A stretch of DNA of 64,000 bases, from assembly GCA_964496035.1 (NCBI GenBank), contig CAZBXI010000001.1, positions 1,126 to 65,125 of the forward strand, read 5' to 3'. The stretch's first letter is position 1. The number at the start of each line of letters is the position of its first letter. Below, piece by piece: positions 8,557-47,049 of the stretch. Both the position numbers and the translations under genes were made by a program. The stretch comes from an uncultured Desulfurococcales archaeon (GTDB taxonomy: Archaea > Thermoproteota > Thermoprotei_A > EX4484-217-1). The notes beneath the pieces are model-generated. The model saw nothing but the letters and a program-made list of their open reading frames with translations, was not told the DNA's origin and did no database searches.

Positions 8557-8639
8557 TACTTTTACCTAAATACTTCGTTAATGAAGCTTGCTTTAAATAA
8601 GACTTAAGAGGTAATAATACCGGTGTAGGTGCAAGCTGA

Positions 8640-15211: not shown

Positions 15212-15222
15212 CTTAGCTACTT
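15206..15222. terminator. perfect palindrome aagtagcttagctactt containing the stop codons of both convergent genes
   Basis: A 7-bp stem with a 3-nt loop lies exactly at the junction of the plus-strand TAG (15209-15211) and the minus-strand TAG (15217-15219). Confidence 0.3.
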
Positions 15223-16842
15223 GAAAAGTAACTCCGAAAGATCAAAACTTTTTCTCCGTCTCGACTGGAATTCTTCAAGAGTCCCTTTAACTATTATTTC
15301 ATAGAGTCTTGCCTCTTTACCTTTAGACGGTCTTAGTAGCCTACCAAGTCTCTGTATAAACTGTCTTCTAGAACCAGTACCTGTAACTATAATTCCGACA
15401 TTAGCATCTGGTATATCTAATCCTTCATCACCTACCGTGGTAACCACTAATACTCGAGTTTTGCCCTCTTTAAAATTTCTCAAAATTTCTTGTCTTTTTC
15501 TAGTTTCAGTTTCGCCTATCAGTATGGGTGCATTAAGGAGTTTACCGAGTTCTTTTGCTTGATCCACATACTGTGTAAAAACTATTATTTTACTACTTTT
15601 CTTAAGTTCTAAATCAACTATTTTCCTAACTACTTTATTTTTACTTTTAGACTTATGTACTATTTGCCTTAACTTACTATGTATTCTTAACGCATTCTGC
15701 GCTCTTATGTCTCCTCTTCTAGCTTTTTCCAGTACCATTTCAAATTTCTCCCCACCGCTTAGCTCTTTATACACCTTGTACAGCTCTCTATATTCTTTAT
15801 ATTCATCCGGCGTTAACGTTACCTCAATGGGATATATTATGTAAGGTGCTAAGTATCCTTTTATTGCAAGGTCTGATGGAGACTTATAGTAAACTACGCC
15901 ACCCATTAACGGGAAAAGTTCTTCATGTTTTCCATCTTCTCTTACTACAGTAGCAGATAATCCCATTCTTTTAGGAGCAAAAGAGTTTATAGCTATGTAT
16001 TTAAATTTGTCCGAAGGCAAATGATGTACTTCATCGATAATTAGAAATGAAAAATACTTTGTTAAAACATCTATATGCCTATAGGCTGTTTGGTATGTAG
16101 AAATAGTTATGGGGGAAAGCCTTTTTTCCTCACCATAATATAAGCCTATGTATTCTTTTTTAACATCTGTGAATTTAACTATCATGTCTTGCCATTGAAA
16201 CATTTGTTCTTTAGTATAGGTTACTATGAGTGTTCTTTCAGAGAGCTTAGTTATAGCGGCTATGGCTATGATGGTTTTTCCTGCGCCAGTTGGTAAGGCA
16301 ATAACGCCTTTAGCCCCTTTACTAAGCCATGTGTTTAGTGCTTCCTCCTGATAATCTCTTAAAGAAACGTTAAGTTTAATGTTGAAAGGGAGTTTTAGAG
16401 AGTCAGATAAACCTGTTTCATCAATTACTCTTAGTCCGAGCTCGTTGAGTTTCTTTTTAAGCTCAAAGAAATATATTGGCTTTACATATATCTTCCTTAA
16501 ACGCCTATCATAGGTGACAAAGTCCCTGATTTCGTTGAATTTCTCCCCTAGATAGATGTGTGTTTGAAGAAGAACTCTATTTTGATCCCAAACTAGCCTT
16601 ATTGTTCTCTTCGCTAAAATACGTTCCTTAATTCTCTCTAATATCCTTTCATCAAGTATTATGCCTACGTCCTCTAATATGGAAATCACATCTTCGTACT
16701 CTAGGTTGTTTTTATGTATTTTATTGAAGTTTATAACAAACTTTGCTCCTCTACTTGTTCGACCTAGGTAGTCTGCTATAGTAAGTAGTTTCTCATAGTC
16801 TTCTTTATCTAACCACTTTTTTACTTCGAAGTATGTTGACAA
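15217..16842 (-). CDS. xpb: XPB/Rad25-type SF2 DNA repair helicase
   Basis: DYQEEAL, Walker A LPTGAGKT, Walker B IIDEVHHL, helicase C-terminal motifs (TQYVDQ, RLGRLLR), and an N-terminal damage-recognition-like domain. Confidence 0.85.
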   Translation of the reverse strand: MSTYFEVKKWLDKEDYEKLLTIADYLGRTSRGAKFVINFNKIHKNNLEYEDVISILEDVGIILDERILERIKERILAKRTIRLVWDQNRVLLQTHIYLGEKFNEIRDFVTYDRRLRKIYVKPIYFFELKKKLNELGLRVIDETGLSDSLKLPFNIKLNVSLRDYQEEALNTWLSKGAKGVIALPTGAGKTIIAIAAITKLSERTLIVTYTKEQMFQWQDMIVKFTDVKKEYIGLYYGEEKRLSPITISTYQTAYRHIDVLTKYFSFLIIDEVHHLPSDKFKYIAINSFAPKRMGLSATVVREDGKHEELFPLMGGVVYYKSPSDLAIKGYLAPYIIYPIEVTLTPDEYKEYRELYKVYKELSGGEKFEMVLEKARRGDIRAQNALRIHSKLRQIVHKSKSKNKVVRKIVDLELKKSSKIIVFTQYVDQAKELGKLLNAPILIGETETRKRQEILRNFKEGKTRVLVVTTVGDEGLDIPDANVGIIVTGTGSRRQFIQRLGRLLRPSKGKEARLYEIIVKGTLEEFQSRRRKSFDLSELLFK

Positions 16843-16849
16843 CGCTCTT

Positions 16850-17308
16850 TCACTCCATATAATCGTATCCTATGATCATAGTTTTTCCAGATACTTCTAT
16901 TCCTACCTCTCTTAATGCCATAATGATATTTTTAATGACATTACCTATGTCTTTTAAACTTAATAGGTTTACTTCAATATATACGCTATCTCTGCTTTCT
17001 CTATAAAATGTGAGGTTTTTTAATACGTTACTTCTCTTTAAACTTGCTAGCACGTTGCTCCATGTTATTCCTCGCTTCTCTATAACGCTTTTATTTAAAA
17101 TAACCTTTATTCCATGGACGATAACGTTTTCCTTCGTCAAAACATCTATTTCAACGCTCAGCGAAATTAAGGGTTCTGTAGAGAAGAAAAACTCCAAGTA
17201 CCTACTACCTCTATGTATTGCTTCTTCAAAAGCCCAAAGTATGTAGTAATCTTTAGGTACATATTCTTTTAATGCACTTTTAATTTCCTTTACTGAGGTT
17301 CTTAACAT
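16850..17308 (-). CDS. hypothetical protein, co-oriented 7 bp upstream of xpb (too short to be Bax1)
   Basis: 152-aa ORF tightly linked to xpb. Confidence 0.4.
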   Translation of the reverse strand: MLRTSVKEIKSALKEYVPKDYYILWAFEEAIHRGSRYLEFFFSTEPLISLSVEIDVLTKENVIVHGIKVILNKSVIEKRGITWSNVLASLKRSNVLKNLTFYRESRDSVYIEVNLLSLKDIGNVIKNIIMALREVGIEVSGKTMIIGYDYME

Positions 17309-32578: not shown

Positions 32579-32959
32579 ATGAAGTTGGATTTGAAGGTTC
32601 TGCTGGGAAATTATAAATACGTCGAACTTCATTTAGCGGATGCTCTGAAACTTCTTGGCATGCTTGAAGAAAAATTTCCGAATAAGATAAAGGATATTTC
32701 TGAGGTTCGACGCATTATAGAGAACTTTGATGTATTTTACGATATTGCCAAGAGAAAATTTAAAGATTATATTTTAATACCGCATGAGCCTAGCGATATG
32801 CTACTTGGTAGAGTGTTATTTGATAAGGTTAAGCTCATAAGAACGAGTAACGCTAAGAAGATAGGTTTATTTTTCGATAAAAATATTAAGCTAAAAGATA
32901 TAGTTGAGGCACTAAAGAGTTTAGGTTTTGAAGTTAATGTCATTGAAAGCTCTATTTGA
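32579..32959 (+). CDS. hypothetical protein
   Basis: 126-aa ORF. Confidence 0.35.
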   Translation: MKLDLKVLLGNYKYVELHLADALKLLGMLEEKFPNKIKDISEVRRIIENFDVFYDIAKRKFKDYILIPHEPSDMLLGRVLFDKVKLIRTSNAKKIGLFFDKNIKLKDIVEALKSLGFEVNVIESSI

Positions 32960-32962
32960 ACA

Positions 32963-33199
32963 TTACTTTCTCTTTCTTCTCTTAGGTTTAGGTTTGACCC
33001 TAGCTTTCTTAGCCTTTATGAGTTCTTTTATTGACATTTTTCCTCCAAGAATGTTTTCCCAAAACTCTGTTATTTCAATGAAAAACTCTAGATCTTGAAT
33101 AGAAAATTCTTCTCCATATTCTTCTTCGGCAATCACCTCAGTTATCTCAGTACGTGCTCTCTCTGTTTCCTCAGACAATTCCTCTGTTTCAGAAGTCAA
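32963..33199 (-). CDS. hypothetical small protein with an acidic N-terminal half and a poly-basic C-terminal tail
   Basis: C-terminus KAKKARVKPKPKRRKRK. Confidence 0.3.
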   Translation of the reverse strand: MTSETEELSEETERARTEITEVIAEEEYGEEFSIQDLEFFIEITEFWENILGGKMSIKELIKAKKARVKPKPKRRKRK

Positions 33200-33285: not shown

Positions 33286-35106
33286 TTAGATTTCTATTTT
33301 CACTATGGCGGGTTCTGCTAGTCTACTATCTCTTACTATAGCATAGAATCTAGGCATATAATAAAGTGCTTCCTTAAAAATTTCCAGCCTATTTTCCGAA
33401 ATATATCCTGCTAAGGTCTTAGCCATATAGTCTAAGTTTTCTGGTTCAGAAAGTTTAAAGGATATTTTTAATGCACTATTTGCTATTATGCCTTCATCTA
33501 TGTCTAGTGGTTGCTGCGTTATTATTATGAAGCCTATACCATACTTCCTACTTTCCATCATTAGTCTCGCTACTAGAGAAGGTTCTGTGCTTCTTCTACA
33601 TATTCTATGGGCTTCATCAATAACTATGTAGTGTGATAATCCCATACTCTCTCCTGAAACATACATGTAATGAGCTATTTTTCTTAGCAATGTTTCTGAG
33701 AGAATAGCTTTCACGTGGTCCCCAGGTAGATTAGCCATAGCTATTACGCTAGGTTTACTAAGAATATCTGAGAAGCTTATTGTTGTTTCCCTAAATATAG
33801 ATGTAGACAATAATCTGATGTATGGTTTTAATCCTTCATATCTTGATCTTTCACCACTACTTCTAGCATATTCTATTCTTTTCTCTATAACCCTAAGTAG
33901 TGTCAGAAACGTCGGGGGTTTAAATTTCCATGTTTCAGGGTCATCATTTACTATTCCTTTTTCAGCATAAGCTTCTTCTAAAAGATCTTCAAGAACAGCT
34001 CTTTGAAGGTTACCTAGCCTAAATACGCGTTGTATAGTGTCCGCTACTTGAACTATTCTTTCTCTTGGAGAACACTCGTCAAGTTCTAAAGGATTTATAG
34101 ATATTTTAGAAGCATCTACTACTATACCGCCAAGTTCCTCAATAACTTTAACGTATTCGTTATGTGGATCTATAACTAAGCATGGTATTGCCCATTGATA
34201 GTAAAGTTCCTTTATTAGTTTTTTAGCTAGGCTTGATTTACCTGTGCCACTACTTCCAGCTATCAAAATGTGGTAATTTATTTGAGAATAAGGGTTATAA
34301 GTGTATGTTCCTGATTCAACTCTCCAATACCAGCTTGGCGACTTGGGTATGTGAAGTTTTTCCTTTAACCATACATTAGCTGGTTTACCGTACACCAATC
34401 TAGAAACTATTCTACCTATCTTAACACCTTCTATTGCCTTTTCCTCTTCCACCATGCTTTCAGTTGCAACACCTTTAAACATCGCGTATGGGAGAGAAAT
34501 CCATGAAGCTATAGCATATAGGTTCCTGCTTATTTTATGACCTTTTAGAACAAGTAGTGATAAAGAGAATATTACTCCAAGAATATACACTATCTCTTCG
34601 TAGAACCCCATAGGCTTAACTAATGTTATGAGAGAGGCGATAGCTATTATAATAAATGACTTAGCTAGTAGAGTTTTCTGAAAGCCCTTTATAGATATTT
34701 TTAGGTCTTTTATTCTATCGATTACTATGTCTCCTCTTTTAAGAATTAAGCTCCATGAGTAGTAGGATGCTATGAAGGCTGAAAACGTTATAGCGTAAGT
34801 TACAGGGTTTCCAACAATGTTGTCTATATTCATCATTAACATAGCCAATTTATACTCAGGAGTAAACATTAAACATATGCTTAATACCTTCTTTACGGTT
34901 AACAGTGAAAGTATAGCTGAGAATGTTTCTGTTAGCGCTGCTATCGGAGATTCAAGAATTATAGACGCAACTATTAGAGATAACGAAATGAAGGCCCATA
35001 TCACATATATGTTCGCTATAATAAATGCTTGAATGTTAGATGCTAAGTAAAGTATTATAATTAACTGAGCTACAGCTATCAAAGTACATTTTAATCCTAG
35101 ATCCAT
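33286..35106 (-). CDS. membrane-anchored HerA/FtsK/VirB4-superfamily P-loop ATPase (about 8 N-terminal TM helices plus a DUF87-like ATPase)
   Basis: Walker A AGSSGTGKSS, Walker B HYIVIDEAHRI, and C-terminal IITQQP. The N-terminal 240 aa are highly hydrophobic. Confidence 0.7.
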   Translation of the reverse strand: MDLGLKCTLIAVAQLIIILYLASNIQAFIIANIYVIWAFISLSLIVASIILESPIAALTETFSAILSLLTVKKVLSICLMFTPEYKLAMLMMNIDNIVGNPVTYAITFSAFIASYYSWSLILKRGDIVIDRIKDLKISIKGFQKTLLAKSFIIIAIASLITLVKPMGFYEEIVYILGVIFSLSLLVLKGHKISRNLYAIASWISLPYAMFKGVATESMVEEEKAIEGVKIGRIVSRLVYGKPANVWLKEKLHIPKSPSWYWRVESGTYTYNPYSQINYHILIAGSSGTGKSSLAKKLIKELYYQWAIPCLVIDPHNEYVKVIEELGGIVVDASKISINPLELDECSPRERIVQVADTIQRVFRLGNLQRAVLEDLLEEAYAEKGIVNDDPETWKFKPPTFLTLLRVIEKRIEYARSSGERSRYEGLKPYIRLLSTSIFRETTISFSDILSKPSVIAMANLPGDHVKAILSETLLRKIAHYMYVSGESMGLSHYIVIDEAHRICRRSTEPSLVARLMMESRKYGIGFIIITQQPLDIDEGIIANSALKISFKLSEPENLDYMAKTLAGYISENRLEIFKEALYYMPRFYAIVRDSRLAEPAIVKIEI

Positions 35107-35211
35107 GGCTTATTTTTCCCACAATAAAAGTTAAAGATAAAATATTAAATAACCCTAACCACTTATTAGCTTGAAATACGGAAGCAGAAATACTGTATTC
35201 AATTGATTGCA

Positions 35212-38025
35212 ATGAGTTTCACTACGTTTGAAGATTTAGGTTTAAATAGGAAACTAGTTAATGTAATTAAGAAATTCGGATACGTAGAGCCTACTAGGAT
35301 TCAGAGAAAAGCCATTCCGCTTATTCTTGAAGGCCACCATACACTTATAGTTAGTACTACAGGATCAGGAAAAACTGAAGCTTCATTGTTTCCAATATAT
35401 TCTAAAATACTAAACTCGGGCCTTGAAAAAACAAGTAATATTTATTGCATCTACATTACTCCGCTACGAGCCCTAAATAGGGATATTATGAGGAGAATGG
35501 GAGAGATAGGTAAAGCCTTAAATATAAAGGTCTCGGTACGGCATGGCGATACACCGAAGAATGAACGAAGAAAAATAATTAGAAACCCTCCTCACATCAT
35601 CATAACTACTCCTGAAACTTTCCAATTCATTCTAGTTGGTCCACGTTTAAGAGAACTACTTAAGAATGTCAAATGGGTTATTATAGATGAACTTCACGAA
35701 CTCATATGCAGCAAAAGAGGTACCTCACTTGCCGTGGCTTTGGAAAGACTTTCTGCTCTTTCTAATAGGAGAGTGCAGAGAATAGGGCTTTCAGCTACTA
35801 TAGGGGATATTGATTTGGCCAAAAGATTTCTTGGAGGATTTAGGAAAGTTAAAGTTGTTACCGAGGATATTAAGAAACCCATGTCTATAATTGTGGATTA
35901 TCCCCGATCTACATCACATGATCATTTATCGGAAATTCATGCCATTAAACCCGAGTTTATTGCAAGACTTAGAAAGATGAAAGATTTCATAGAGAAAGCA
36001 AATTTAACTATAGTTTTTACTAACACCAGAGATCTTGCCGAGATCATAAGCCTAAGTCTTAAAGACATATTCGGCGTCAATACCTTAGTTCATCACGGAA
36101 GTTTATCTAGAGAAGTAAGGTTAGAAGCTGAAGAAATGCTTAGGAAAAAAGCTGTAAAAGCTGTGGTTGCAACATCATCCCTTGAATTAGGGATAGACGT
36201 AGGCTATATAGATTTAGTTATTCAATATGGCTCTCCTAGGCAAGCTATTAAGCTTATACATAGGATAGGTAGAAGCGGACATAGGGAATTTGAGACCTCT
36301 AAGGGTGTAATAATTCCAGCAGGAGGTCTTGACGACATTTTAGAATCTGCTGTGATTGCTAGAAGAGCACTGAACGGGTTTCTAGAAAAGCCTATTGTGC
36401 CAACTCGATCTTTAGACGTACTAGCACATCAAGTTGTAGGTCTAACTCTAGAATATGGAGCCTTAAGCATAGATAAAGCCTTTTCCATAATTAACAAGGC
36501 CTATCCATACCGAGGTCTTGACTATGAAATATTTAGAGAGCTTATTACATTTCTTAATGAAATTGGTCTTATAAGATATGATGGAGGATTTTTAAAAAGG
36601 ACAGCTAGGTCGTGGAAATATTATTACGAGGTCACTATGATACCTGATGTAAGACAATACATAGTTAAAGATGTAGTATCCGGCCGGGTTATTGGTGTTC
36701 TTGATGAGAAATTCGTAATCACCAATTGTGACGTAGGTTCTAAGTTTGTTCTTTCGGGAATGGTATGGGAAGTTATTAGTATTGATGAAGAATGTGTTCA
36801 TGTAAAGCCATCCATTAAAGGCATAGGTGTTTTACCGTGGTGGGAAGGAGAACTGATACCAGTAGATTTTAAAGTTGCTAGAGAAGTTGGTGCTTTTAAA
36901 AGAAGAGTTATGGTTAATGATCTTTCGGTTTTGAACATGTATCCCTTAAGCAAAGAAGCGAAGAATGCTATCTTAGAGAAAATACATTGTCAGAAAAAGG
37001 AAGTAGGCTTTATTCCCTCCGACAAACATGTAGTTATAGAGTCTTTAGGGAAAATCACCATAATTCATGTACATCTGGGTAGCAGAGGGACGTTCACTTT
37101 ATCCACTATCATTTCTTACATTTTAAGAAACATGGGTTTTAATGCCGTTCTCAGAAGCGACCCTTACAGGATATTCATTATTCCAAGTAAACCCATAAGA
37201 GCTAGCCTTGTAGCTAAAATACTGAAAAACCTTAGTACCATTAGCGAAGAGGCGTTCAAAGAAATACTGGAAAATGAACTTAAGAGAACTAAGCTTTTTA
37301 AATGGTACTTATTTAATGTAGCTAAACGCTTTGGCGCAATAAGACCTGGTATCCCATATAATGTTGTGTCAAGGATTTTACCTGCATATGAGAATACATT
37401 AATGGGAGTAGAAGCTCTCAACGAAATCATCACGTTTAAGACAGACTTAAATTCTACATTAAAAGTATTAAGAGATATAAAGGAGGGGAAGGTGAAGATC
37501 TTAGTTTATGAGAGAAATGATCCTATGCCTCTAACAGCTGAGATTTTAGGTAGCCAAATAACGTTCATGGAAGCTGCATATGAAATACCTTCAATCGTCA
37601 AAGTGTTTAAAGAGAGATTACTTAGCAAAAGAGTTAAACTGGCATGTATAAAATGTGGATCAGTTCTCGGTATTATTAGAATAAAAGATCTTCCAGAAAG
37701 GTTACATTGTAGAAAGTGTGGTTCCGGTCTTCTAACAGTGCTTTCACCTGATGATAGAGAAGTAGAGGACGTTATTAGGAAGAGGATAAGAGGTTTAAAA
37801 TTAAATCCCTACGAGAAAAGTATCTTAAGAGATGAAATACTTAAAGCGGACCTTGTTCTAAGATTTGGAAGATATGCAGTATTAGCTCTCTCAACGTACG
37901 GCGTAGGTCCGAAAACCGCCGCTAAAGTATTAGGCGAGCTCGTTTACGGCGAGGATAACTTCTATAAGGCTTTGCTTAAAGCTGAAATAGATTTTATTAG
38001 AACTAGGAAATATTGGGACACTTAG
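35212..38025 (+). CDS. lhr: Lhr-like large ATP-dependent helicase (second paralog)
   Basis: Walker A STTGSGKTE, DEAH-type IIDELHE, motif VI HRIGRSGH, and a long Lhr-core C-terminus. ATG at 35212 is preferred over TTG at 35203. Confidence 0.85.
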   Translation: MSFTTFEDLGLNRKLVNVIKKFGYVEPTRIQRKAIPLILEGHHTLIVSTTGSGKTEASLFPIYSKILNSGLEKTSNIYCIYITPLRALNRDIMRRMGEIGKALNIKVSVRHGDTPKNERRKIIRNPPHIIITTPETFQFILVGPRLRELLKNVKWVIIDELHELICSKRGTSLAVALERLSALSNRRVQRIGLSATIGDIDLAKRFLGGFRKVKVVTEDIKKPMSIIVDYPRSTSHDHLSEIHAIKPEFIARLRKMKDFIEKANLTIVFTNTRDLAEIISLSLKDIFGVNTLVHHGSLSREVRLEAEEMLRKKAVKAVVATSSLELGIDVGYIDLVIQYGSPRQAIKLIHRIGRSGHREFETSKGVIIPAGGLDDILESAVIARRALNGFLEKPIVPTRSLDVLAHQVVGLTLEYGALSIDKAFSIINKAYPYRGLDYEIFRELITFLNEIGLIRYDGGFLKRTARSWKYYYEVTMIPDVRQYIVKDVVSGRVIGVLDEKFVITNCDVGSKFVLSGMVWEVISIDEECVHVKPSIKGIGVLPWWEGELIPVDFKVAREVGAFKRRVMVNDLSVLNMYPLSKEAKNAILEKIHCQKKEVGFIPSDKHVVIESLGKITIIHVHLGSRGTFTLSTIISYILRNMGFNAVLRSDPYRIFIIPSKPIRASLVAKILKNLSTISEEAFKEILENELKRTKLFKWYLFNVAKRFGAIRPGIPYNVVSRILPAYENTLMGVEALNEIITFKTDLNSTLKVLRDIKEGKVKILVYERNDPMPLTAEILGSQITFMEAAYEIPSIVKVFKERLLSKRVKLACIKCGSVLGIIRIKDLPERLHCRKCGSGLLTVLSPDDREVEDVIRKRIRGLKLNPYEKSILRDEILKADLVLRFGRYAVLALSTYGVGPKTAAKVLGELVYGEDNFYKALLKAEIDFIRTRKYWDT

Positions 38026-39976
38026 TTGCTAGCTTTACTCTTAAGAGTTTCTCCAGGAACTTAGCTACCTCTTCCCTTTTCCTCTTAGTTTCTCTTCTCC
38101 ACGCATCATATTTATTTAGGATTAGAGCACTCACTATTTTCTCAACCATAACATCCGCTATCGGACATACGTCTAAACATGCTCTACACATAATACACGT
38201 TATAGGGTTAACTAGAACTTCATGGTTTTCGCCTATGCTTACTGATCCTGTAGGACACAGTGTTACGCAGGATAAGCATTCCGTACAGTACATACTTCTA
38301 TAAGTAAGTTTAACAGCATCTAATGTTTCCTCAAGTACGTTATTCTTTGCTCTAACACTTAAGGTTCCTCTCTCGCTAAAAACGTACGTTACATCCTTGC
38401 TATCGTTCTTAACTATAAGTATTTTCTCTCTTCTTACTACATTTTTCCCCAATATACTGCATGTTTTCTCTATTTTGCTTAAATCTATACCCTTAGAGAA
38501 CAATATATTGGCTTTTTCATCGCTAATGCTAGTTTCGACTATGTACATGTCTAGCCATGCTCTGTACTGTTCACGCCATTTCTCAACGAATTCTCTATGC
38601 TTCTTAGCCAAGACTTTCTTAGGAGTGGCCGGTCCTAGCCATCTCCATAAACCAAGAGTTACCCATTCTTTCGGAGCGTTAATTCTTTTTGCCCATTTAT
38701 AAAGGAACGATTCCCACTTGTTCCACAGTGTAGGATGGGTTTTCTTCACTACTTCGAACTCTGCCAGTCTGCTTGCTGGGCACATGTAACAACCTATTCT
38801 ATCAAAACCCATGTAGTATAGTGGATTCGCTTTGAGTTTATTTCTAAATATGTATAGCCATATAGCTAATTGGTTCCAATATTGGATAGGAGATATACTT
38901 ATTATAGTTGGTATCCATTTATTCCTCCATATTCTTGGACTTCTAGCTCTATCAAGAGACTCGTATGCTCTTTGCCCTACTATGTTGAGTATTCCGCTAG
39001 GATAGTTTTTCAGTATTTTTCTAGCTAAAGGTACCAATTTAGCTACCTTACAACACCACCTATAGTCTCTTGCCGGTGGCCCATAGAATTTTACAGATTC
39101 CCAAAAAGCATTTCCTGCATCTGCTACTTCTAAGTCTAGACCGTAACGGTCTGCTACTTCATGAACTGTTTTCACGGTTTCAGGAAGTTCAATACCTGTG
39201 TCGTTAAATAGAAGTGGACAATCACCTAGACTTCGTAGAGTTAAATGCAGCGAAACCAGACTATCTTTACCTCCAGAAAATGAGACTATAACTTTTTTAG
39301 AGATTTTAGTATGCATTTTTTCAAGAAATTTCGTAGCTTTCTGTATCATGCTATCCAGATGGTCTTCATTTGCCCTAATTACGTCTTCTAAAGTAGCTTT
39401 TCTTGCGCTTGTTTCGAAGTAGAACTTCTGCTTATAAACTTTAATTATTTTTATCTTGTTTTTAGATATAACTTTAGCCAGTCCTACGGGTTCCTCCTTA
39501 GTATTTACTAGTACTACATGATGCTGTTTTTCTAAAGGAGCTGGTAGGGTAATTATTTGAGCGGGCTTTATCTTTTCTCGAATAGTTAATATTTCTATAA
39601 CGTCTTTCTCTATTAGCCTTAAAGCCCCGTAGTATGATGGTCTAAACTCCCATTTACTTTCAAACGGATTATATAACATTATACCGAAAATATTACCATC
39701 AACTATTACTTCCTTGGCATCATCTATGTGTGTTGTTTTATTGAGTAGAATTACTCTCTCATAAAAGAACCTAGATTTGGACTTTTCCATACTTAGCGCA
39801 TTTAAAAGCTGATTTATATCATGTTCGAACGCTATCCTAACATCTCCGGGTTCTCTAAGCTTTAGTTCGTAACCTTCTCCACCACACTTGCAACATCGAC
39901 TACTTAGAAGGGGAACATTACATACAGGACACCAATACGTTCTCGCTATTAAGGGCCAATGCTTCTTAAAGACCAC
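38003..39976 (-). CDS. fusion protein: N-terminal Zn-ribbon plus PUA-like region, PAPS-reductase/PP-loop ATP pyrophosphatase domain, C-terminal 2x[4Fe-4S] ferredoxin
   Basis: PP-loop SFSGGKDS. CysH-like RAYESLDRARSP and ...GFDRIGCYMCP. Ferredoxin motifs CTECLSCVTLCP and CIMCRACLDVCP. N-terminal CPVC...CCKC. Confidence 0.7.
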   Translation of the reverse strand: MVFKKHWPLIARTYWCPVCNVPLLSSRCCKCGGEGYELKLREPGDVRIAFEHDINQLLNALSMEKSKSRFFYERVILLNKTTHIDDAKEVIVDGNIFGIMLYNPFESKWEFRPSYYGALRLIEKDVIEILTIREKIKPAQIITLPAPLEKQHHVVLVNTKEEPVGLAKVISKNKIKIIKVYKQKFYFETSARKATLEDVIRANEDHLDSMIQKATKFLEKMHTKISKKVIVSFSGGKDSLVSLHLTLRSLGDCPLLFNDTGIELPETVKTVHEVADRYGLDLEVADAGNAFWESVKFYGPPARDYRWCCKVAKLVPLARKILKNYPSGILNIVGQRAYESLDRARSPRIWRNKWIPTIISISPIQYWNQLAIWLYIFRNKLKANPLYYMGFDRIGCYMCPASRLAEFEVVKKTHPTLWNKWESFLYKWAKRINAPKEWVTLGLWRWLGPATPKKVLAKKHREFVEKWREQYRAWLDMYIVETSISDEKANILFSKGIDLSKIEKTCSILGKNVVRREKILIVKNDSKDVTYVFSERGTLSVRAKNNVLEETLDAVKLTYRSMYCTECLSCVTLCPTGSVSIGENHEVLVNPITCIMCRACLDVCPIADVMVEKIVSALILNKYDAWRRETKRKREEVAKFLEKLLRVKLATKCPNIS

Positions 39977-40947: not shown

Positions 40948-41157
40948 ATGCCTGTTATTTACCTTTGTAGGAATTGCGGTTTCGTATTATACCGGTTCGA
41001 GAGAGTAGGTCAAGACTATTATGGATTGCCAACACCTAGCGAAATAATGAATTGGTATGGTGGTGTTTGCCCTAAATGTAATTCGAAACTTAGAAAACCT
41101 ACTTTATCGAGCATAAGAGTTGGATTTCGAGGGAAACTGATTACCTTAAAGCAGTAG
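40948..41157 (+). CDS. small zinc-ribbon protein
   Basis: CRNC...CPKC four-Cys ribbon; 69 aa. Confidence 0.4.
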   Translation: MPVIYLCRNCGFVLYRFERVGQDYYGLPTPSEIMNWYGGVCPKCNSKLRKPTLSSIRVGFRGKLITLKQ

Positions 41158-41353
41158 CTTTTAGTTGAACTTTCTTTACCGTACTTTTCTTTTCTTCACT
41201 GTAGTGATTTAATAATTCTATAATGGCTTTTCTTATTGCCTCACTTCTACTTGAAAAGTAACCTTTTTTAACAAGTTCATCAAGTTCCTCGAGAATTTCT
41301 CTTCTCAGTTTGAACGTTACAACAACGGTGTCATCGAGCCATATCGTCGCCAA
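41141..41353 (-). CDS. CopG/ribbon-helix-helix DNA-binding protein
   Basis: TVVVTFKLRREILEELDELVKKGYFSSRSEAIRKAI is a canonical RHH beta-alpha-alpha. Confidence 0.6.
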   Translation of the reverse strand: MATIWLDDTVVVTFKLRREILEELDELVKKGYFSSRSEAIRKAIIELLNHYSEEKKSTVKKVQLKATALR

Positions 41354-41476: not shown

Positions 41477-41719
41477 GTGAAGAAGGTGGGTATAGACAGC
41501 TTGATTAGTGATTTGACTACAAGAGTTGTCATGGCAGCTTGGGCTTTATTCATGCTATCATGGGCTTTAGGGTGGTTATTGAAGGGTTCACCTATTCCGA
41601 TATACAGAGTTAAAAGGTTCGGCCAGGATATGGTTGAGGATGCTATAATGGGTGCTTTTTGGCTTGCTGTTGGTACAAGTATTTTCGCACTTATTAAGTA
41701 TTTAGCTTCAGCATTTTAG
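41477..41719 (+). CDS. small 2-TM membrane protein (CedA1-like)
   Basis: 80 aa with two hydrophobic helices; first gene of the cluster. Confidence 0.45.
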   Translation: MKKVGIDSLISDLTTRVVMAAWALFMLSWALGWLLKGSPIPIYRVKRFGQDMVEDAIMGAFWLAVGTSIFALIKYLASAF

Positions 41720-41745
41720 TTTAACAACCTAACGCGTGAAGAATC

Positions 41746-43197
41746 ATGGATCAGTTCCTTATATTAGCATACTCATTAGCTATACTTACATATTATCTAG
41801 GCGTATTCATATATGCCCTACCTATACCATGGTGGGGTATTAAAAAATGGGCTCCTACACTTATTTACGATGCTCTCGCTACAGCTATTCTCATTTTCAT
41901 GTTTTCTTCTATTATTGAACTAGTAAATTACCTTGGATCTATGCTGAACATTGATTGGCAATTATATTTTGAATGGATTACAGGCAGAATTGCCATTATA
42001 GGTTCCTTCATAACAACCCTCATGACCTTCTCTATGATGCTGTCTAGTGCGGGCATGAAAGCATTATCTACGGCAGGATTAGGCCCTATTATAAGTTTAG
42101 CAACGTATACTTTAATTGTTCTAGAAATTCTTTTCATACTAGGTCTCATTTTTCAACAATTCTTTGCTAAAATATTGGTAATAGGTGTATTACTGTATTC
42201 TGTGCCTTTCAGGATAACAAGGGGTGCAGGGGCATCTTTAATTGCTATGTCGATAATTTTTACTTTAGCTCTACCATTGCTACCGGCATTTGCAGAAGCT
42301 TTTGTTGTTGAAAGCGCTGAGAAAAATATTAGTGAGGTTATTGAAAAAATAGGTAGCATAAATGTTGAAGAATGGGGTATAGTTTTCGTTAAAGGACAAA
42401 TACTCGATAAAAAAGGACAGCCATTAGCTGGTGCTCTTACGAAATGGTATGCAAAACATAGTGGTGGAGAAGGCTTCGTAGCATCATATCTTACTTCAGA
42501 AGATGGATGGTTTAATGCTGGTAGACCATACGGAGGACTTCCATACAACGTACTATTAAGGCTGGAGGTAATCTACTGCGGTGTGAAGTTAATTCCAGAA
42601 TTAGAAACCATAGATCCGCATAAAGATTTCATATATGATCCTCTTAGAGATCCTAACGCAGATTACTTCATTACATTGAAAATGAAAAACGCTGTTATCA
42701 TGGATAAATACTTCATTATTAAATCAAGCAATCCTAAGATTCTAAGCTCATTAAAAATAAGTAAAAGCGAAGATGAAGTGAAATTAAAACTTAACGTAAG
42801 TGAAGAGTCAACATTAACTATAGTCGTACATGAGGACTATAATGCTGATAAAATCATGATTAACAACACGCAAGCAAAGAGCTATGATGAAGTGAAATCC
42901 TGGGGTCAAATCAATTTCTACGTTTACAACATCCCCTTAGAAGAAGGTTCGTACGAAATAAAAATACTCATTAACCCCGAGCAGCGAATAAGGAACCCAA
43001 AAATAAGCGATAAAGGGTACTTAAAGTCTTTATCAGGAGGCATAAGTAACTTAAGAGATTTAGGTAAAACCATAGCTAGTGTCATTTTTGAATGGATAAT
43101 GCTGCCGATAACATACCTTTCAATTCTCATAATGTCTACGTACTCCTTAGCTTATGTTATTGGTGGTAGAAGAGTAAGGTTACCTATAAAGACTTGA
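41746..43197 (+). CDS. polytopic membrane protein (CedA-like; 6-7 N-terminal TM, a soluble middle domain, and a C-terminal TM)
   Basis: Hydrophobic N-terminal 190 aa and a C-terminal helix. It sits between the two small TM genes and the ATPase. Confidence 0.5.
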   Translation: MDQFLILAYSLAILTYYLGVFIYALPIPWWGIKKWAPTLIYDALATAILIFMFSSIIELVNYLGSMLNIDWQLYFEWITGRIAIIGSFITTLMTFSMMLSSAGMKALSTAGLGPIISLATYTLIVLEILFILGLIFQQFFAKILVIGVLLYSVPFRITRGAGASLIAMSIIFTLALPLLPAFAEAFVVESAEKNISEVIEKIGSINVEEWGIVFVKGQILDKKGQPLAGALTKWYAKHSGGEGFVASYLTSEDGWFNAGRPYGGLPYNVLLRLEVIYCGVKLIPELETIDPHKDFIYDPLRDPNADYFITLKMKNAVIMDKYFIIKSSNPKILSSLKISKSEDEVKLKLNVSEESTLTIVVHEDYNADKIMINNTQAKSYDEVKSWGQINFYVYNIPLEEGSYEIKILINPEQRIRNPKISDKGYLKSLSGGISNLRDLGKTIASVIFEWIMLPITYLSILIMSTYSLAYVIGGRRVRLPIKT

Positions 43198-43207
43198 GGG
43201 TGATATT

Positions 43208-43399
43208 ATGGACCCCTTTAAAACTATGATAATAATGTATGTTCTTACCGTAATATTTGTAGTGTACAACGTACTCACATACTCAAGTCAAATGAATGTA
43301 TTTGTATCAATATTGTTCTCGATTCTAATAGTTTTCCCAGTACTAGCTATCCTAGCTTACTATAAAAACATAGTAAGAGGTGAAATTGATGGAAAGTAG
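43208..43399 (+). CDS. small 2-TM membrane protein (CedA2-like)
   Basis: 63 aa with two hydrophobic helices; overlaps the ATPase start by 20 bp. Confidence 0.4.
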   Translation: MDPFKTMIIMYVLTVIFVVYNVLTYSSQMNVFVSILFSILIVFPVLAILAYYKNIVRGEIDGK

Positions 43400-45263
43400 T
43401 AAAATAATACCGTACATGCTCATAGTAGTGGGCTTAATGATTTCCATGTACATTTCTAATCCTCAGATTTTTGAAAAACCCTATTACGCAACATTGCTTG
43501 TAGCCTCAACAGCAATTACTATATCAATAGCAATAATGGGTAGAGAGAAAATTAGGAAGCTATTAGGCGCTAAGCTCAGAAAAAGTATCATTAAAGATAT
43601 AAATGATTTCCACGTTGAAGAGAACATAGTAATTATGCCTAATAAGGACATTTATAAAGGGGCAATAGTATATACGGTAAGCGAAATACCGTATACGTTT
43701 GCCGATGTGTCACAAAGTTTTCTACTGCAACAAATAAGGGCATTTACTAACTTTATAGTTGCATCCGAAGACAATACTTCCTTACTTTTAATTAAAAAGA
43801 GCGGGGATGTGAGAAAATACGTTAGGAACCTTGAACGTACCATAACTAATTATAAAGTGCTGCTTTCCGCAGATCCTGCTAACCCCTACATTCAGAGAAA
43901 ACTGCAGAAACTTGAAGCATTATTTAACAGGATAAGTAGAGGAGAAACACCAATCAATGTAAAAATATATTTAATAGCTTCAGCCCAAGACAGAAATGTT
44001 AGGAAACTCTATGAAAAGTTAAGAAGGAAAGGTGAGACATTATCTTCATCGTTTAAAGCAAGCTTAGGGCTAGAGTTAAGGAAGGCATCTGAAGAAGAAG
44101 TATTAGAAGCAATAACACATGGCCTTCTAGGTGAAAGTAAACCTATAACCATGCTTGAATCTGACTTGAGCTTCCTAACACCTATAGGATATGTTAAGCG
44201 GCCTAAAATTTCTGGTGAAGGAATATTTATAGGAGAGGATATTGACTATGGAACGCTAGTATTCTACGATTTCGAAAAACACTTAACTAAACATATGGTT
44301 ATCATTGGACCTACAGGTAGGGGTAAAACAACGTTATTGTACACGATAGCTAAGAGGGTTATTGAACAATACGATGTTCCCATATGGATTTTGGACTTAA
44401 GAGGAGAATTTATCGGATTAAGTAAAACAATGGGTATCTCAGTAGTAGACCCTGAGAAAACACCAATCAACTTAATGTTACCATGGTTTACTAGCCCAAG
44501 GCTTAGAGCAAGGCAGTTAATAGATTTAATTAAATCGTTAACAGATTTAGAACCCACAGAAGAGTACATATTATACATGTCGATACTTAAATCATATGAA
44601 CGTGCTCAGCAGCCTAACCTAGAAACGCTAATAAGAGTTATTCAAGAAGAAAAATCATCGAGTTCAGAACTAGAACTAAAGTTCTACACCTTACTTACAA
44701 AAATAGAGCAGTTAAATAGCAAAGTATTTCTAGGAAGCAGTTACGGCAATGTATTCTCCATAGTTAAGAAACCCGTAATTTTTGCCCTATATAAGCTACC
44801 TGAAGAGTATAGGAAAATATATGCGTTGGCGATCCTACAAATACTTACTAATTACATGTTAACATTAACGCCGACGAACAAGCTTAGACGCTTAGTACTA
44901 ATAGATGAAGCTTGGAGGCTTACAGATACTAAATCCGGATCTAAAATTATTAGGAGTCTAATCAAGGAAGGTAGAGGCTACGGGTTAGCAGTTGCTCTTG
45001 CCTCACAAGACATTACAGATTTCCCAAAGGACGTACTTGACAACGCCGGCACTGTCATCGTATTTGGCTCCAATAGTAAGGACTACATAGAAGCTGTAGC
45101 TAGGTACATGAAGCTTAATGAGGAGGAGAAAGAGAGAATGACGTGGTTGAAAACAGGAGAGGCACTAATCAGAATTACAGGGGATCCTAGACCAATATGG
45201 GTAAAAATAATACCGGAAAGCATGGAGGCTCAGAGCATAGTATCTAAAGCAGAAAATAGGTAA
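43380..45263 (+). CDS. membrane-anchored HerA/VirB4-like ATPase (CedB-like; 2 N-terminal TM)
   Basis: Walker A IGPTGRGKTT, Walker B VLIDEAWRL, and C-terminal ALASQD...VFGS. Two N-terminal TM helices. Confidence 0.7.
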   Translation: MKLMESSKIIPYMLIVVGLMISMYISNPQIFEKPYYATLLVASTAITISIAIMGREKIRKLLGAKLRKSIIKDINDFHVEENIVIMPNKDIYKGAIVYTVSEIPYTFADVSQSFLLQQIRAFTNFIVASEDNTSLLLIKKSGDVRKYVRNLERTITNYKVLLSADPANPYIQRKLQKLEALFNRISRGETPINVKIYLIASAQDRNVRKLYEKLRRKGETLSSSFKASLGLELRKASEEEVLEAITHGLLGESKPITMLESDLSFLTPIGYVKRPKISGEGIFIGEDIDYGTLVFYDFEKHLTKHMVIIGPTGRGKTTLLYTIAKRVIEQYDVPIWILDLRGEFIGLSKTMGISVVDPEKTPINLMLPWFTSPRLRARQLIDLIKSLTDLEPTEEYILYMSILKSYERAQQPNLETLIRVIQEEKSSSSELELKFYTLLTKIEQLNSKVFLGSSYGNVFSIVKKPVIFALYKLPEEYRKIYALAILQILTNYMLTLTPTNKLRRLVLIDEAWRLTDTKSGSKIIRSLIKEGRGYGLAVALASQDITDFPKDVLDNAGTVIVFGSNSKDYIEAVARYMKLNEEEKERMTWLKTGEALIRITGDPRPIWVKIIPESMEAQSIVSKAENR

Positions 45264-45389: not shown

Positions 45390-45929
45390 GTGATTTTCTT
45401 GAACAACCTAAGCAGCATTACGCCCGTGCATGCAGAATCTTACTTCATTGTTGAACGAAATGGCACTTTTAACCAAATATTAAAATATCAATATCACGAC
45501 CCAGAGGAGTACTTCTATAAGCTCATACATAAACCACGTGAATATTATAATGAAATCAGCAGATTATATTCGGTTATTAAAGAAGTTTTAGAAGAAGAGA
45601 GAGTGCTCATAAACGGAAAAAGAGTAAGCCTAAACGTTGAATTTATAAACATTGACTTTACAGGGTACATAGATTTACCCTACATAGTATATTTTATAAA
45701 GTTCAAAGGAACATTAAAGAAAGGTGTTAATGTTTTCGAAGACTATTACGGCGAAACCGTGGCAGAATATGATTACGAAGTATACTGGTTTTTTCCTAAG
45801 CGAACTAAGATATTAGAAGTTTATGTTGATGGAGACTACGATCTCGTAGATGACAATAAGCTCTTTATTTGGGTTAGAAAAGGCGATAAAATATCAGGTT
45901 ATGAGAAAATAGTTTTTAAGCTCTCTTAA
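45390..45929 (+). CDS. hypothetical protein
   Basis: 179-aa ORF, rich in Y/E/D. Confidence 0.35.
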   Translation: MIFLNNLSSITPVHAESYFIVERNGTFNQILKYQYHDPEEYFYKLIHKPREYYNEISRLYSVIKEVLEEERVLINGKRVSLNVEFINIDFTGYIDLPYIVYFIKFKGTLKKGVNVFEDYYGETVAEYDYEVYWFFPKRTKILEVYVDGDYDLVDDNKLFIWVRKGDKISGYEKIVFKLS

Positions 45930-47049
45930 TTCTTAGCACATTCTTATAATATTTCACTAAAGGATTCTTCACGTTACACTCTTCGATACATAAACCTAGT
46001 GTTCTCATGGTGTCGCAATTATAAGGCTTATACTTCTTCCTGGAACCTCTTAAACCAGCTAAATGTTCAACCTGATATTTAGCTATGGTTTCATCAAAAT
46101 CAGGTAATTTTCTAAAAACATTAACAACAGATTCTACATCTAGTCCTATATTAAGGAGGAAAGTAGCTAAAGCAAACCTAGCATGGTGTGAGAGATGTTT
46201 ACCATCTAAAGCATCCTGATAGAGAACTTTAATACATGGTGGAAAAGCTTCAAAAACAACAATTCCTAAGCTTCTAAGTTCATCAAATTTCTCCTTCATA
46301 CTAGCGTAAAGCGCGTATCGTGCATGTTCCTTTCTTATTTTTTGTACTTCCGACTCTATATTGCTTAAAATATCTTTAACTAAGTTAGGTATTTCCTCTC
46401 TGCTTAGAGGTCTAACTTGTTGTTCTATAGTATTAGTTATGATTTCTACTAAATATCTAATGACTTTCTCCCTAGTTAAGTAAACAAATCCTTCTGAGAC
46501 CATTTGATTAACAAGTTTCCAGGAAAGATCACTATGTAGCCTTATAGACTTAAGATAATCTCTAACATGAACCCTAAATGGGTACTTTATGTCATATATT
46601 ACTCCCCTACTTATAAGATAAGGGATTTTAAGAGGCTTATTTTCTATATTATCCAATAATATCCCTAGCTTACTTGCTATTACAGATAAAACATCGTTAC
46701 TTTCATCCATCAAGAACTTCCTTATTCTCTCTGCTTCAGCTACCGCGTATTTTCTGGTAAGCCACTTATCATTGAGAACAGATAATACTATTATGCTTAA
46801 ATAGTACGCTACTATTTCTTCATCATCTGATATTCCAATAGGATCAGGTATTTTCCCCTTTATTGCACCCAAAATTCTTTCTCTTACACGCCTTCCTAAT
46901 CTTTTAATATCCATGGTTTTTAGAATATCCATGAAGCTTAATCTTACGCTATATTTTATGTTAAAGTATTGCGTAGGTTGAATTAAAAAAGGGTATTTAG
47001 TAAAATCTACATGCACCCTTATATTTCTTCCAACGCCTTGCTTACTCAT
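45916..47049 (-). CDS. priL: DNA primase large subunit PriL
   Basis: C-terminal Fe-S domain FPPCIKVLYQDALDGKHLSHHARFALATFLLNIGL...YKPYNCDTMRTLGLCIEEC. Confidence 0.8.
   Translation of the reverse strand: MSKQGVGRNIRVHVDFTKYPFLIQPTQYFNIKYSVRLSFMDILKTMDIKRLGRRVRERILGAIKGKIPDPIGISDDEEIVAYYLSIIVLSVLNDKWLTRKYAVAEAERIRKFLMDESNDVLSVIASKLGILLDNIENKPLKIPYLISRGVIYDIKYPFRVHVRDYLKSIRLHSDLSWKLVNQMVSEGFVYLTREKVIRYLVEIITNTIEQQVRPLSREEIPNLVKDILSNIESEVQKIRKEHARYALYASMKEKFDELRSLGIVVFEAFPPCIKVLYQDALDGKHLSHHARFALATFLLNIGLDVESVVNVFRKLPDFDETIAKYQVEHLAGLRGSRKKYKPYNCDTMRTLGLCIEECNVKNPLVKYYKNVLRIKRA

Follow-up and report, generated by a model that had tools for sequence, protein, structure and literature searches.

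A 64,000-nucleotide stretch of a contig from an uncultured Desulfurococcales archaeon (CAZBXI010000001.1; the whole stretch is called the window here) carries, head-to-head, the genes of a 606-amino-acid (aa) membrane ATPase and of an aLhr1-type helicase. The ATPase gene stands ancestrally head-to-head with aLhr1 and beside the cluster cedA1-cedA-cedA2-cedB, and the conserved pair near ced genes suggests an extra part of archaeal DNA exchange. Our preferred reading, held tentatively, is that the ATPase may be a Ced-associated membrane DNA translocase, i.e., a functional counterpart of CedD and VirD4 rather than a member of CedD, and that it may be co-regulated with aLhr1. The domain architecture, family membership and motifs of the ATPase, and the conservation of both the pair and its ced linkage, are observed; from them we infer hexamer formation, DNA translocation, co-regulation, any contact of the ATPase with aLhr1 or CedA/CedB, physical or functional, and the direction of DNA transport.

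The questions at stake in the Ced and Ted systems are how DNA crosses the membrane, which enzymes make or receive the strand that is transferred, and whether there is a dedicated exporter. The locus offers two candidates outside the Sulfolobales, namely a motor ATPase fused to a large membrane domain and an aLhr1 helicase. If the link to Ced is true, archaeal conjugation-like DNA transfer gains further components and aLhr1 a physiological context; if it is false, there is still an unannotated, well-conserved family of membrane-anchored HerA-type ATPases that deserves a name and a curated model. A second membrane-bound HerA-like ATPase serving Ced systems is not new as a concept, CedD having been described in 2025 (PMC11868833, PMC11823120). 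What is new is the ATPase family itself, with its architecture, its missing N-terminal domain (NTD), a membrane domain without a recognised fold relative and its kept pairing with aLhr1.

Architecture of the ATPase and its unnamed family

The ATPase gene occupies 33286..35106 on the minus strand, and its product was assigned to an unnamed family of polytopic-membrane HerA/DUF87-type ATPases from the open reading frame (ORF) and its translation, Pfam, homologues and an AlphaFold2 (AF2) model. The 606-aa ORF and both Walker motifs are as the initial annotation gave them, and the ORF is not a chance one, because full-length homologues exist down to ~25% identity. The P-loop ATPase domain (aa 275-606; 33289..34284, minus strand) was delimited by motifs, Pfam, Foldseek and hidden Markov model (HMM) matches; the Pfam score for the DUF87/HerA central domain PF01935 is 52.5 bits against a threshold of 23.2 (E 9e-14). 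In the minus-strand translation, Walker A reads GSSGTGKS (aa 284-291, nt 34234-34257) and Walker B reads YIVIDEAH (aa 493-500, nt 33613-33630). The family alignment shows G284, G287, G289, K290, D497/E498, R520, K521 and Q531 to be invariant, and ESRKYG at aa 518-523, which holds the invariant R520 and K521, is a candidate arginine-finger region. As judged from Walker A, Walker B, the arginine-finger region and a score above the Pfam gathering threshold, the protein is assigned to the P-loop ATPases of the FtsK-HerA superfamily.

In front of this domain lie an N-terminal membrane domain of 6-8 helices (aa 1-210; 34477..35106, minus strand), recognised from AF2, hydropathy, invariant columns and charge distribution, and a linker with a long beta-hairpin, recognised from AF2 and the family alignment (strands aa 228-240 and 258-270; 34285..34476, minus strand). 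The AF2 model was computed from a 45-sequence family alignment whose first sequence, P0001, is ~99.5% identical to the window protein; with a mean predicted local distance difference test (pLDDT) score of 87.7, it runs from membrane helices through the hairpin to the ATPase domain, with an acidic disordered linker between helices and hairpin. Its membrane helices lie at 3-23, 29-51, 54-81, 85-99/101-121, 144-163, 168-187 and 192-210. Hydropathy gives 5-7 hydrophobic segments in family members, and Lys/Arg residues are concentrated in the loop 122-143 and the linker 211-227; the topology that fits has ~6 crossings and one interfacial helix, with the ATPase domain cytoplasmic. Thus, the polytopic N-terminus of the initial annotation stands, but its count of about 8 transmembrane (TM) helices is an upper bound, because the hydropathy segments and the charge pattern fit ~6 crossings. 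Three motifs of the membrane domain are kept in the family, ESP (aa 52-54), KRGD (aa 123-126) and SWIxLP (aa 201-206), and the hairpin region carries the signature EGxxLG...YGxP...WYW with G227, G231, W259 and W261 invariant, the two tryptophans belonging to the WYW motif.

The nearest fold and sequence relatives of the ATPase domain are all DNA-translocating ring ATPases. Its best match in the PDB is the C-terminal domain of DndH/DptH, 7es4 (HMM E 9e-20; Foldseek E 2e-16, target-normalised TM-score 0.74). The C-terminal domain of VirB4 (4ag5/6) also superposes well (target-normalised TM-score 0.72 by Foldseek), HerA (4d2i) is likewise among the top PDB matches, and Foldseek assigns probability 1.00 to the DndH-C, VirB4 and HerA fold matches. 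DndH, itself a HerA/FtsK-like DNA-dependent motor, is thus the best profile and fold match of the domain. However, DndH is a soluble multidomain protein of ~1,700 aa that belongs to the DndFGH restriction module, and only its last ~370 aa correspond; the PADLOC DndH model scores 100.6 bits over model positions 1365-1636 of 1715 only, and the gene tables of the locus hold neither dndF/G nor dndA-E genes.

VirB4 and VirD4 are comparable in being ring-shaped ATPases that power the transfer of DNA at the membrane, and VirD4 (TrwB) is also anchored by N-terminal TM helices. However, the type IV secretion models all score below their cutoffs (PF10412 TrwB_AAD_bind, 17.5 vs 20.5; PF19044 P-loop_TraG, 22.8 vs 25.8; PF12846, 23.5 vs 27.5; TIGR00929, 27 vs 643), and the AF2 secondary structure contains neither the VirB4 NTD nor the VirD4 all-alpha domain. 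HerA and FtsK share with the ATPase the superfamily, the catalytic motifs and presumably a hexameric DNA pump, and in FtsK, too, the anchor is a polytopic membrane domain at the N-terminus. The HerA models NF040937 and NF040819 give 42 bits against 800 and 39 against 970, respectively; the AF2 model has no HAS barrel, and no locus gene table lists nurA, mre11 or rad50. In Pfam, FtsK_SpoIIIE (PF01580) reaches 15.9 bits or less, never at E 0.01 or better, and the AF2 model lacks both the alpha and the gamma domain of FtsK, the latter binding FtsK orienting polar sequences (KOPS), as well as any extra C-terminal domain. In the Pfam and NCBIfam scans, the ATPase falls outside the pilus-assembly and secretion ATPase families, membership of which the initial annotation had named as grounds for doubt.

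The membrane domain matches no Pfam family, CedA1 and CedA included, and a TM-only model found no fold match in the PDB (best Foldseek E 0.67). A CedA-like membrane domain, which would make the protein a channel-motor fusion, was tried and rejected: the 73-sequence TM-domain profile of the ATPase family aligned to a 12-sequence CedA TM profile with an hhalign probability of 0.2%, alongside the TM-only Foldseek result.

A profile search of 1.84 billion cluster representatives gave 286 matches below 1e-30. About 70 of the best clusters (50% identity) represent full-length proteins, 540-680 aa long, in which 4-7 TM segments are predicted and Walker A falls near residues 240-340; the remaining matches are soluble or otherwise-fused DUF87 proteins. 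A second search with a 45-sequence profile added no family members. The carriers are mainly uncultured Desulfurococcales/Acidilobales-like Thermoprotei; close homologues come from metagenome-assembled genomes labelled Acidilobales, Desulfurococcales or Thermoprotei archaeon, and exact or near-exact copies of the locus occur in hydrothermal and hot-spring metagenomes. The locus survey and the tree show the ATPase to be single-copy and vertically inherited. A mobile-element or viral origin was rejected, as no relative was found in the viral contigs of IMG/VR and the PHROG matches are to generic P-loops only.

Among the soluble proteins closest to the ATPase domain (P0113-P0185), many measure ~540-600 aa, and their Walker A falls at residue 50-90. 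Common to them is a conserved C-terminal segment with the signature "PD...A.E.ETG", which may represent a PD-(D/E)xK-type nuclease fused to the motor; none has an NCBIfam match at 1e-50.

The aLhr1 partner, the divergent pair and the ced genes

The divergent partner is a helicase of 937 aa (35212..38025, plus strand), or of 940 aa if translation begins at the TTG at 35203 instead of the ATG at 35212. Pfam finds the DEAD, Helicase_C, WH_Lhr and DEAD_assoc (domain 4) domains, all four above their cutoffs, followed by a C-terminal extension, and the NCBIfam model PRK13767 scores 471 bits. Within the extension, alignment reveals a CxxC-(17)-CxxC zinc ribbon (aa 812-837; 37645..37722, plus strand), which is kept in every Lhr orthologue recovered from related loci. 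Since aLhr1 is defined by the Lhr core plus a C-terminal cysteine-rich zinc-finger region (PMC8301817), the helicase is classified, from its domains, as an aLhr1 with the full architecture known, e.g., from SiRe_1605. The description as an Lhr-core helicase therefore holds for the core domains but not for a bare core, given the zinc ribbon. As of a 2021 survey of Lhr proteins, aLhr1 had not yet been characterised biochemically, and no neighbour of lhr was conserved across all archaeal genomes surveyed (PMC8301817).

A second Lhr-type helicase gene (2..2623, plus strand) runs off the start of the window, near a gene for reverse gyrase (4840..8556, minus strand, 1238 aa). Its product is 31% identical to aLhr1, has no C-terminal zinc ribbon and is aLhr2- or aLhr3-like. 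At least two Lhr paralogues are thus encoded in the genome, only the aLhr1 type being paired with the ATPase.

By their ORF positions, the two genes are separated by an AT-rich region of 105 bp (35107..35211), or 96 bp with the TTG start, which presumably holds both promoters; the divergent arrangement with start codons 96-105 bp apart is thus borne out by the ORF calls. Equivalent gaps in relatives measure 33-214 bp.

To follow the pair, contexts were collected for 12 family proteins by exact look-up, from at least 5 genome loci, and from 48 metagenome loci found with an alignment of the C-terminal part only; 31 window genes were mapped onto all collected loci, and the ATPases were clustered at 90% and 60% identity. 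The initial annotation had made neighbourhood in related genomes its test. The lhr and ATPase genes are head-to-head in 13 of the 16 clusters at 60% identity and in 21 of 26 at 90%, down to an ATPase identity of 30-33% in lineages L016 and L048, and the pair thus passed. The junction is also kept despite an inversion of the pcna block in L015 and the loss of the phosphoadenosine phosphosulfate (PAPS) reductase gene in L016 and L048.

The ced cluster spans 41477..45263 on the plus strand and comprises cedA1 (41477..41719, Pfam CedA1), a cedA-like gene (41746..43197, 483 aa, NCBIfam CedA 155 bits), a cedA2-like ORF (43208..43399) and a cedB-like gene (43380..45263, 627 aa, NCBIfam CedB 261 bits over the full length). 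A distance of 6 kb had been noted earlier; measured from the ATPase start it is 6.4 kb, and the refinement is that the cluster begins only 3.5 kb past the end of lhr. The CedB-like protein and the 606-aa ATPase share 24% identity in the ATPase domain only (E 7e-21), and the observation of two distinct membrane HerA-superfamily ATPases within 12 kb is upheld. The CedB and CedA of this lineage match the Sulfolobales-trained models from end to end, though at low scores; across the lineages that carry the ATPase family, CedB orthologues score 69-261 bits against a cutoff of 700 and CedA orthologues 120-155 bits against 330.

Six lineages scattered over the tree have a ced cluster no more than 10 kb from the pair, with variable intervening genes. 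In the clade of the window and in a clade at 53-62% identity, five small or unrelated genes lie in between; in L017/L038, L034-37 and L049 the PAPS-reductase gene alone does; and in L016 nothing separates lhr from a same-strand run of cedA1, cedA, a small ORF and a cedB-like gene downstream of it. The literature searched makes no mention of Lhr together with the Ced system, in keeping with the statement that such a pairing is undescribed.

Three further observations concern the surroundings of the ced genes. First, about 200 residues at the start of the CedA-like protein (41746..43197) match the 259-position CedA model; the other ~280, a non-membrane domain followed by a hydrophobic segment, match no family and are kept in orthologues of 468-489 aa. 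Second, upstream of cedA1 (40948..41353), a 69-aa CxxC...CxxC zinc-ribbon gene on the plus strand and a 70-aa ribbon-helix-helix gene on the minus strand overlap tail-to-tail; both proteins are 62-100% identical in lineages with ced nearby and also in L006, which has no ced nearby, and the 70-aa protein is a candidate local regulator. Third, the gene of the primase large subunit PriL (45916..47049, minus strand) lies ~650 bp downstream of the cedB-like gene.

Weighing a role in DNA exchange

The Ced system requires CedD, a second membrane-associated HerA-like ATPase that is essential for import and was proposed to be VirD4-like; TedD, its Thermoproteales counterpart, is encoded in the ted locus (PMC11868833, PMC11823120). 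The 606-aa protein is likewise a membrane-associated FtsK-HerA ATPase, the second beside CedB in a genome with cedA1-cedA-cedA2-cedB, and co-occurrence with cedA/cedB is found both in the window and within 10 kb in the six lineages. As with TedD in its transfer-gene locus, the ATPase gene lies in or beside such a locus in several lineages. It resembles CedB in combining an N-terminal TM anchor with a HerA/VirB4-type ATPase, but CedB has a cytoplasmic N-terminal domain of ~250 aa and 2 TM helices, the 606-aa ATPase scores 41 bits on the CedB model, and a true cedB-like gene is present in the ced operon.

That the ATPase is simply the lineage's CedD orthologue, and thus already known, is improbable. 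CedD (Saci_0667 / SiRe_1715) is indeed its best curated NCBIfam model: NF053655 scores 67 bits against an equivalog cutoff of 600, with the ATPase domain alone aligned (residues 275-549 to model positions 219-476 of 527), and is the top NCBIfam model for all family members tested (67-92 bits; 82-92 for the others, at positions ~219-525). In addition, CedD has been reported as membrane-bound in Desulfurococcales and Acidilobales (PMC11868833, PMC11823120), and the CedB and CedA of this lineage also fall far below Sulfolobales-trained cutoffs. Those two nevertheless align over their full length, whereas the N-terminal 218 positions of the CedD model, i.e., the TM segment and the VirB4-like NTD, are never aligned, and full-length colinearity with CedD is absent. 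CedD has a VirB4-like NTD between its TM anchor and the ATPase (PMC11868833); the AF2 model of the 606-aa ATPase lacks it, having only membrane helices and the hairpin there, and a large polytopic domain of 6-8 helices takes the place of the short anchor of CedD. DndH-C outscores CedD (100.6 vs 67 bits), and DndH-C and many unnamed DUF87 proteins are closer to the ATPase than CedD is. Among the best 150 listed 50%-identity clusters, none of the 143 scanned reaches E 1e-50/1e-60 on any NCBIfam model. Finally, the member from Candidatus Acidianus copahuensis (P0187, 552 aa), which has the same polytopic domain and the motif SWISLPY, does not match the CedD model at E 1e-8, whereas the Sulfolobales are reported to have a canonical CedD. 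From model coverage and the published description (TM anchor, VirB4-like NTD, ATPase; PMC11868833), we conclude that the ATPase probably forms a separate unnamed clade and is not CedD by that definition.

Several observations weigh against a Ced-associated translocase that is co-regulated with aLhr1. About half of the lineages (L006, L007, L008, L014, L015, L046, L047 and L048) have no ced genes within 10 kb. The similarity to CedD is weak and non-specific: on the CedD model the 606-aa ATPase, at 67 bits, is outscored by the CedB-like protein of the window, at 79 bits. Over 150 unnamed clusters (50% identity) stand nearer to the ATPase family than any protein named in NCBIfam. The DNA-damage hexamer of Sulfolobales, ANTTTC, does not occur in the intergenic region, an element that may not apply outside Sulfolobales. 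The gene rpo13 (32963..33199, minus strand, 78 aa) follows the ATPase gene by 86 bp on the same strand, an arrangement suggestive of constitutive expression rather than induction by damage. In three cases the ATPase is unpaired: in the L034-37 clade a PAPS-reductase gene lies 4 bp upstream on the same strand and lhr is missing; in L047, Sm-like, L37e and tRNA genes lie upstream; and the very distant L011 has no lhr at the locus. Since these lineages are nested among paired ones in a neighbour-joining tree of the ATPases, the pairing is ancestral, with at least two losses. Moreover, ~20 kb are collinear across lineages, in the order hexapeptide transferase, BrxP-like PAPS reductase, lhr, ATPase, rpo13, p126, pcna, p83, DUF72, parA-like and xpb, a region full of housekeeping information-processing genes such as rpo13, pcna, xpb and parA-like. 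The pair is therefore not uniquely conserved, adjacency alone is weak evidence of a functional link, and it could be inherited rather than selected.

These facts lead to a somewhat unlikely but serious alternative, in which nothing but inherited synteny holds the genes together, the ATPase and aLhr1 do not work together and the ATPase has another membrane-associated role. The junctions p126-pcna and PAPS reductase-lhr are kept about as well as the pair, the ATPase was retained through each loss of lhr at the locus, and across lineages no motif common to all the divergent intergenic regions is visible. However, at the divergence seen here archaeal genes usually keep their order only within functional units, whereas the pair holds to 30% ATPase identity and ~32-58% PCNA identity, and its junction survives the inversion and gene losses described above. 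The coupling of a membrane translocase to a processing helicase, which the initial annotation had thought plausible, did not fare as well as the pairing itself: against it stand the ~20-kb collinearity and the clade that keeps the ATPase without lhr, and it is something that we infer rather than see.

The same surroundings raise another explanation, which we judge unlikely, namely a housekeeping membrane DNA translocase that works independently of Ced on the cell's own chromosome, as an FtsK-like analogue or a repair motor with aLhr1, for example, to clear or rescue DNA at the division site or the membrane. The Crenarchaeota are not known to have an FtsK homologue, and such a role would suit a single-copy, vertically inherited gene that lies among pcna, rpo13, xpb, reverse gyrase and priL and that, in about half of the lineages, has no ced cluster beside it. 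Lhr is reported to prefer fork structures (PMC7437997), which also favours it. On the other side, the family is narrow and was not recovered from most Thermoproteota genomes among the matches listed, an FtsK gamma domain is absent and FtsK_SpoIIIE stays at 15.9 bits or less, and the linkage to ced recurs in deep branches.

A role in Ced-mediated exchange, which we still tentatively favour, would have a partial parallel in the Sulfolobales. The Lhr-type helicase Saci_1500 (Hel112) is apparently encoded close to DNA-exchange genes; work by van Wolferen in 2015 is reported to have placed it beside the ups operon. Saci_1500 has been tied to the UV response of Sulfolobus (PMC8301817, PMC8775617), and its locus tag comes four genes after the ups pilus genes saci_1493-1496 (PMC11823120). 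The difference is that Sulfolobus combines an aLhr2 paralogue with the Ups pilus operon, not an aLhr1 with a membrane ATPase.

The mechanism that we propose for the preferred reading starts from the family layout, a predicted polytopic membrane domain joined by a short beta-hairpin collar to a HerA/DndH/VirB4-like P-loop ATPase. By analogy with characterised FtsK-HerA members, the ATPase domain would form a hexameric DNA-pumping ring at the cytoplasmic face of the membrane and would give the Ced DNA-exchange machinery of this lineage a further motor or coupling ATPase. A divergent promoter region common to the ATPase and aLhr1 genes would drive the expression of both, and aLhr1, as a 3'-5' helicase, would take over transferred DNA or prepare it for recombination.

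A bolder proposal, to which we give little probability, starts from the report that the export component of Ced has not been identified (PMC11823120). The ATPase and aLhr1 might then form the DNA conduit that is missing from the donor side of crenarchaeal exchange, or at least one independent of CedAB, and possibly the exporter. The helicase would unwind chromosomal DNA, in the role of the relaxase-helicase of conjugation, and feed a single strand to the ATPase, a self-contained channel plus motor whose novel polytopic domain would itself be the pore. What fits is a membrane domain that has no known fold relative, is large enough for its share of a hexameric pore and is fused to the motor.

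The PAPS-reductase gene and other neighbours

Convergent with lhr, and overlapping its 3' end by 23 bp, lies the gene of a 657-aa BrxP-like PAPS-reductase/4Fe-4S protein (38003..39976, minus strand), a near-constant third member of the block (in L034 at coordinates 6664-8655). Its product matches Pfam PAPS_reduct and Fer4, PADLOC BrxP (181 bits, E 6e-54) and the NCBIfam equivalog PRK13795, a "hypothetical protein" (478 bits vs a cutoff of 456). BrxP is described as the phosphorothioation enzyme of BREX type 4 (PMC12914056), and the conserved archaeal PAPS-reductase protein might therefore modify nucleic acid.

Together with the BrxHI-like Lhr (PADLOC BrxHI 311 bits) and the DndH-like ATPase, whose best PDB match is DndH-C, this BrxP/DndC-like protein could form a DNA-modification or defence-like module for backbone or base modification and surveillance. 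The phosphorothioation by BrxP and the placement of the PAPS-reductase gene just upstream of the ATPase gene in the L034-37 clade would suit such a module, but we consider it very improbable. No other Dnd, BREX or Ssp components are present. The block is single-copy, vertical and beside core genes, unlike mobile defence islands, and has no relatives in viral contigs; the PAPS-reductase gene is convergent and not co-transcribed with lhr and is missing in L016 and L048. Its product also passes the PRK13795 cutoff, and we take that family to be widespread in archaea.

On the other side of the ATPase gene, p126 (32579..32959, plus strand) encodes a 126-aa protein that matches nothing in Pfam, NCBIfam, PADLOC or PHROGs; it is kept between rpo13 and pcna, at 26-99% identity, in nearly every related locus for which that flank was recovered. 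The 64-kb window as a whole is unusually rich in genes of replication, repair and transcription, among them reverse gyrase, XPB, PCNA, Rpo13, PriL and two Lhr helicases. The XPB (ERCC3/Rad25) helicase gene and an adjacent 152-aa gene without a family match (15217..17308, minus strand) belong to the same conserved neighbourhood, and the 895-aa XPB orthologue of L017 (17699-20386) contains an intein with a LAGLIDADG domain.

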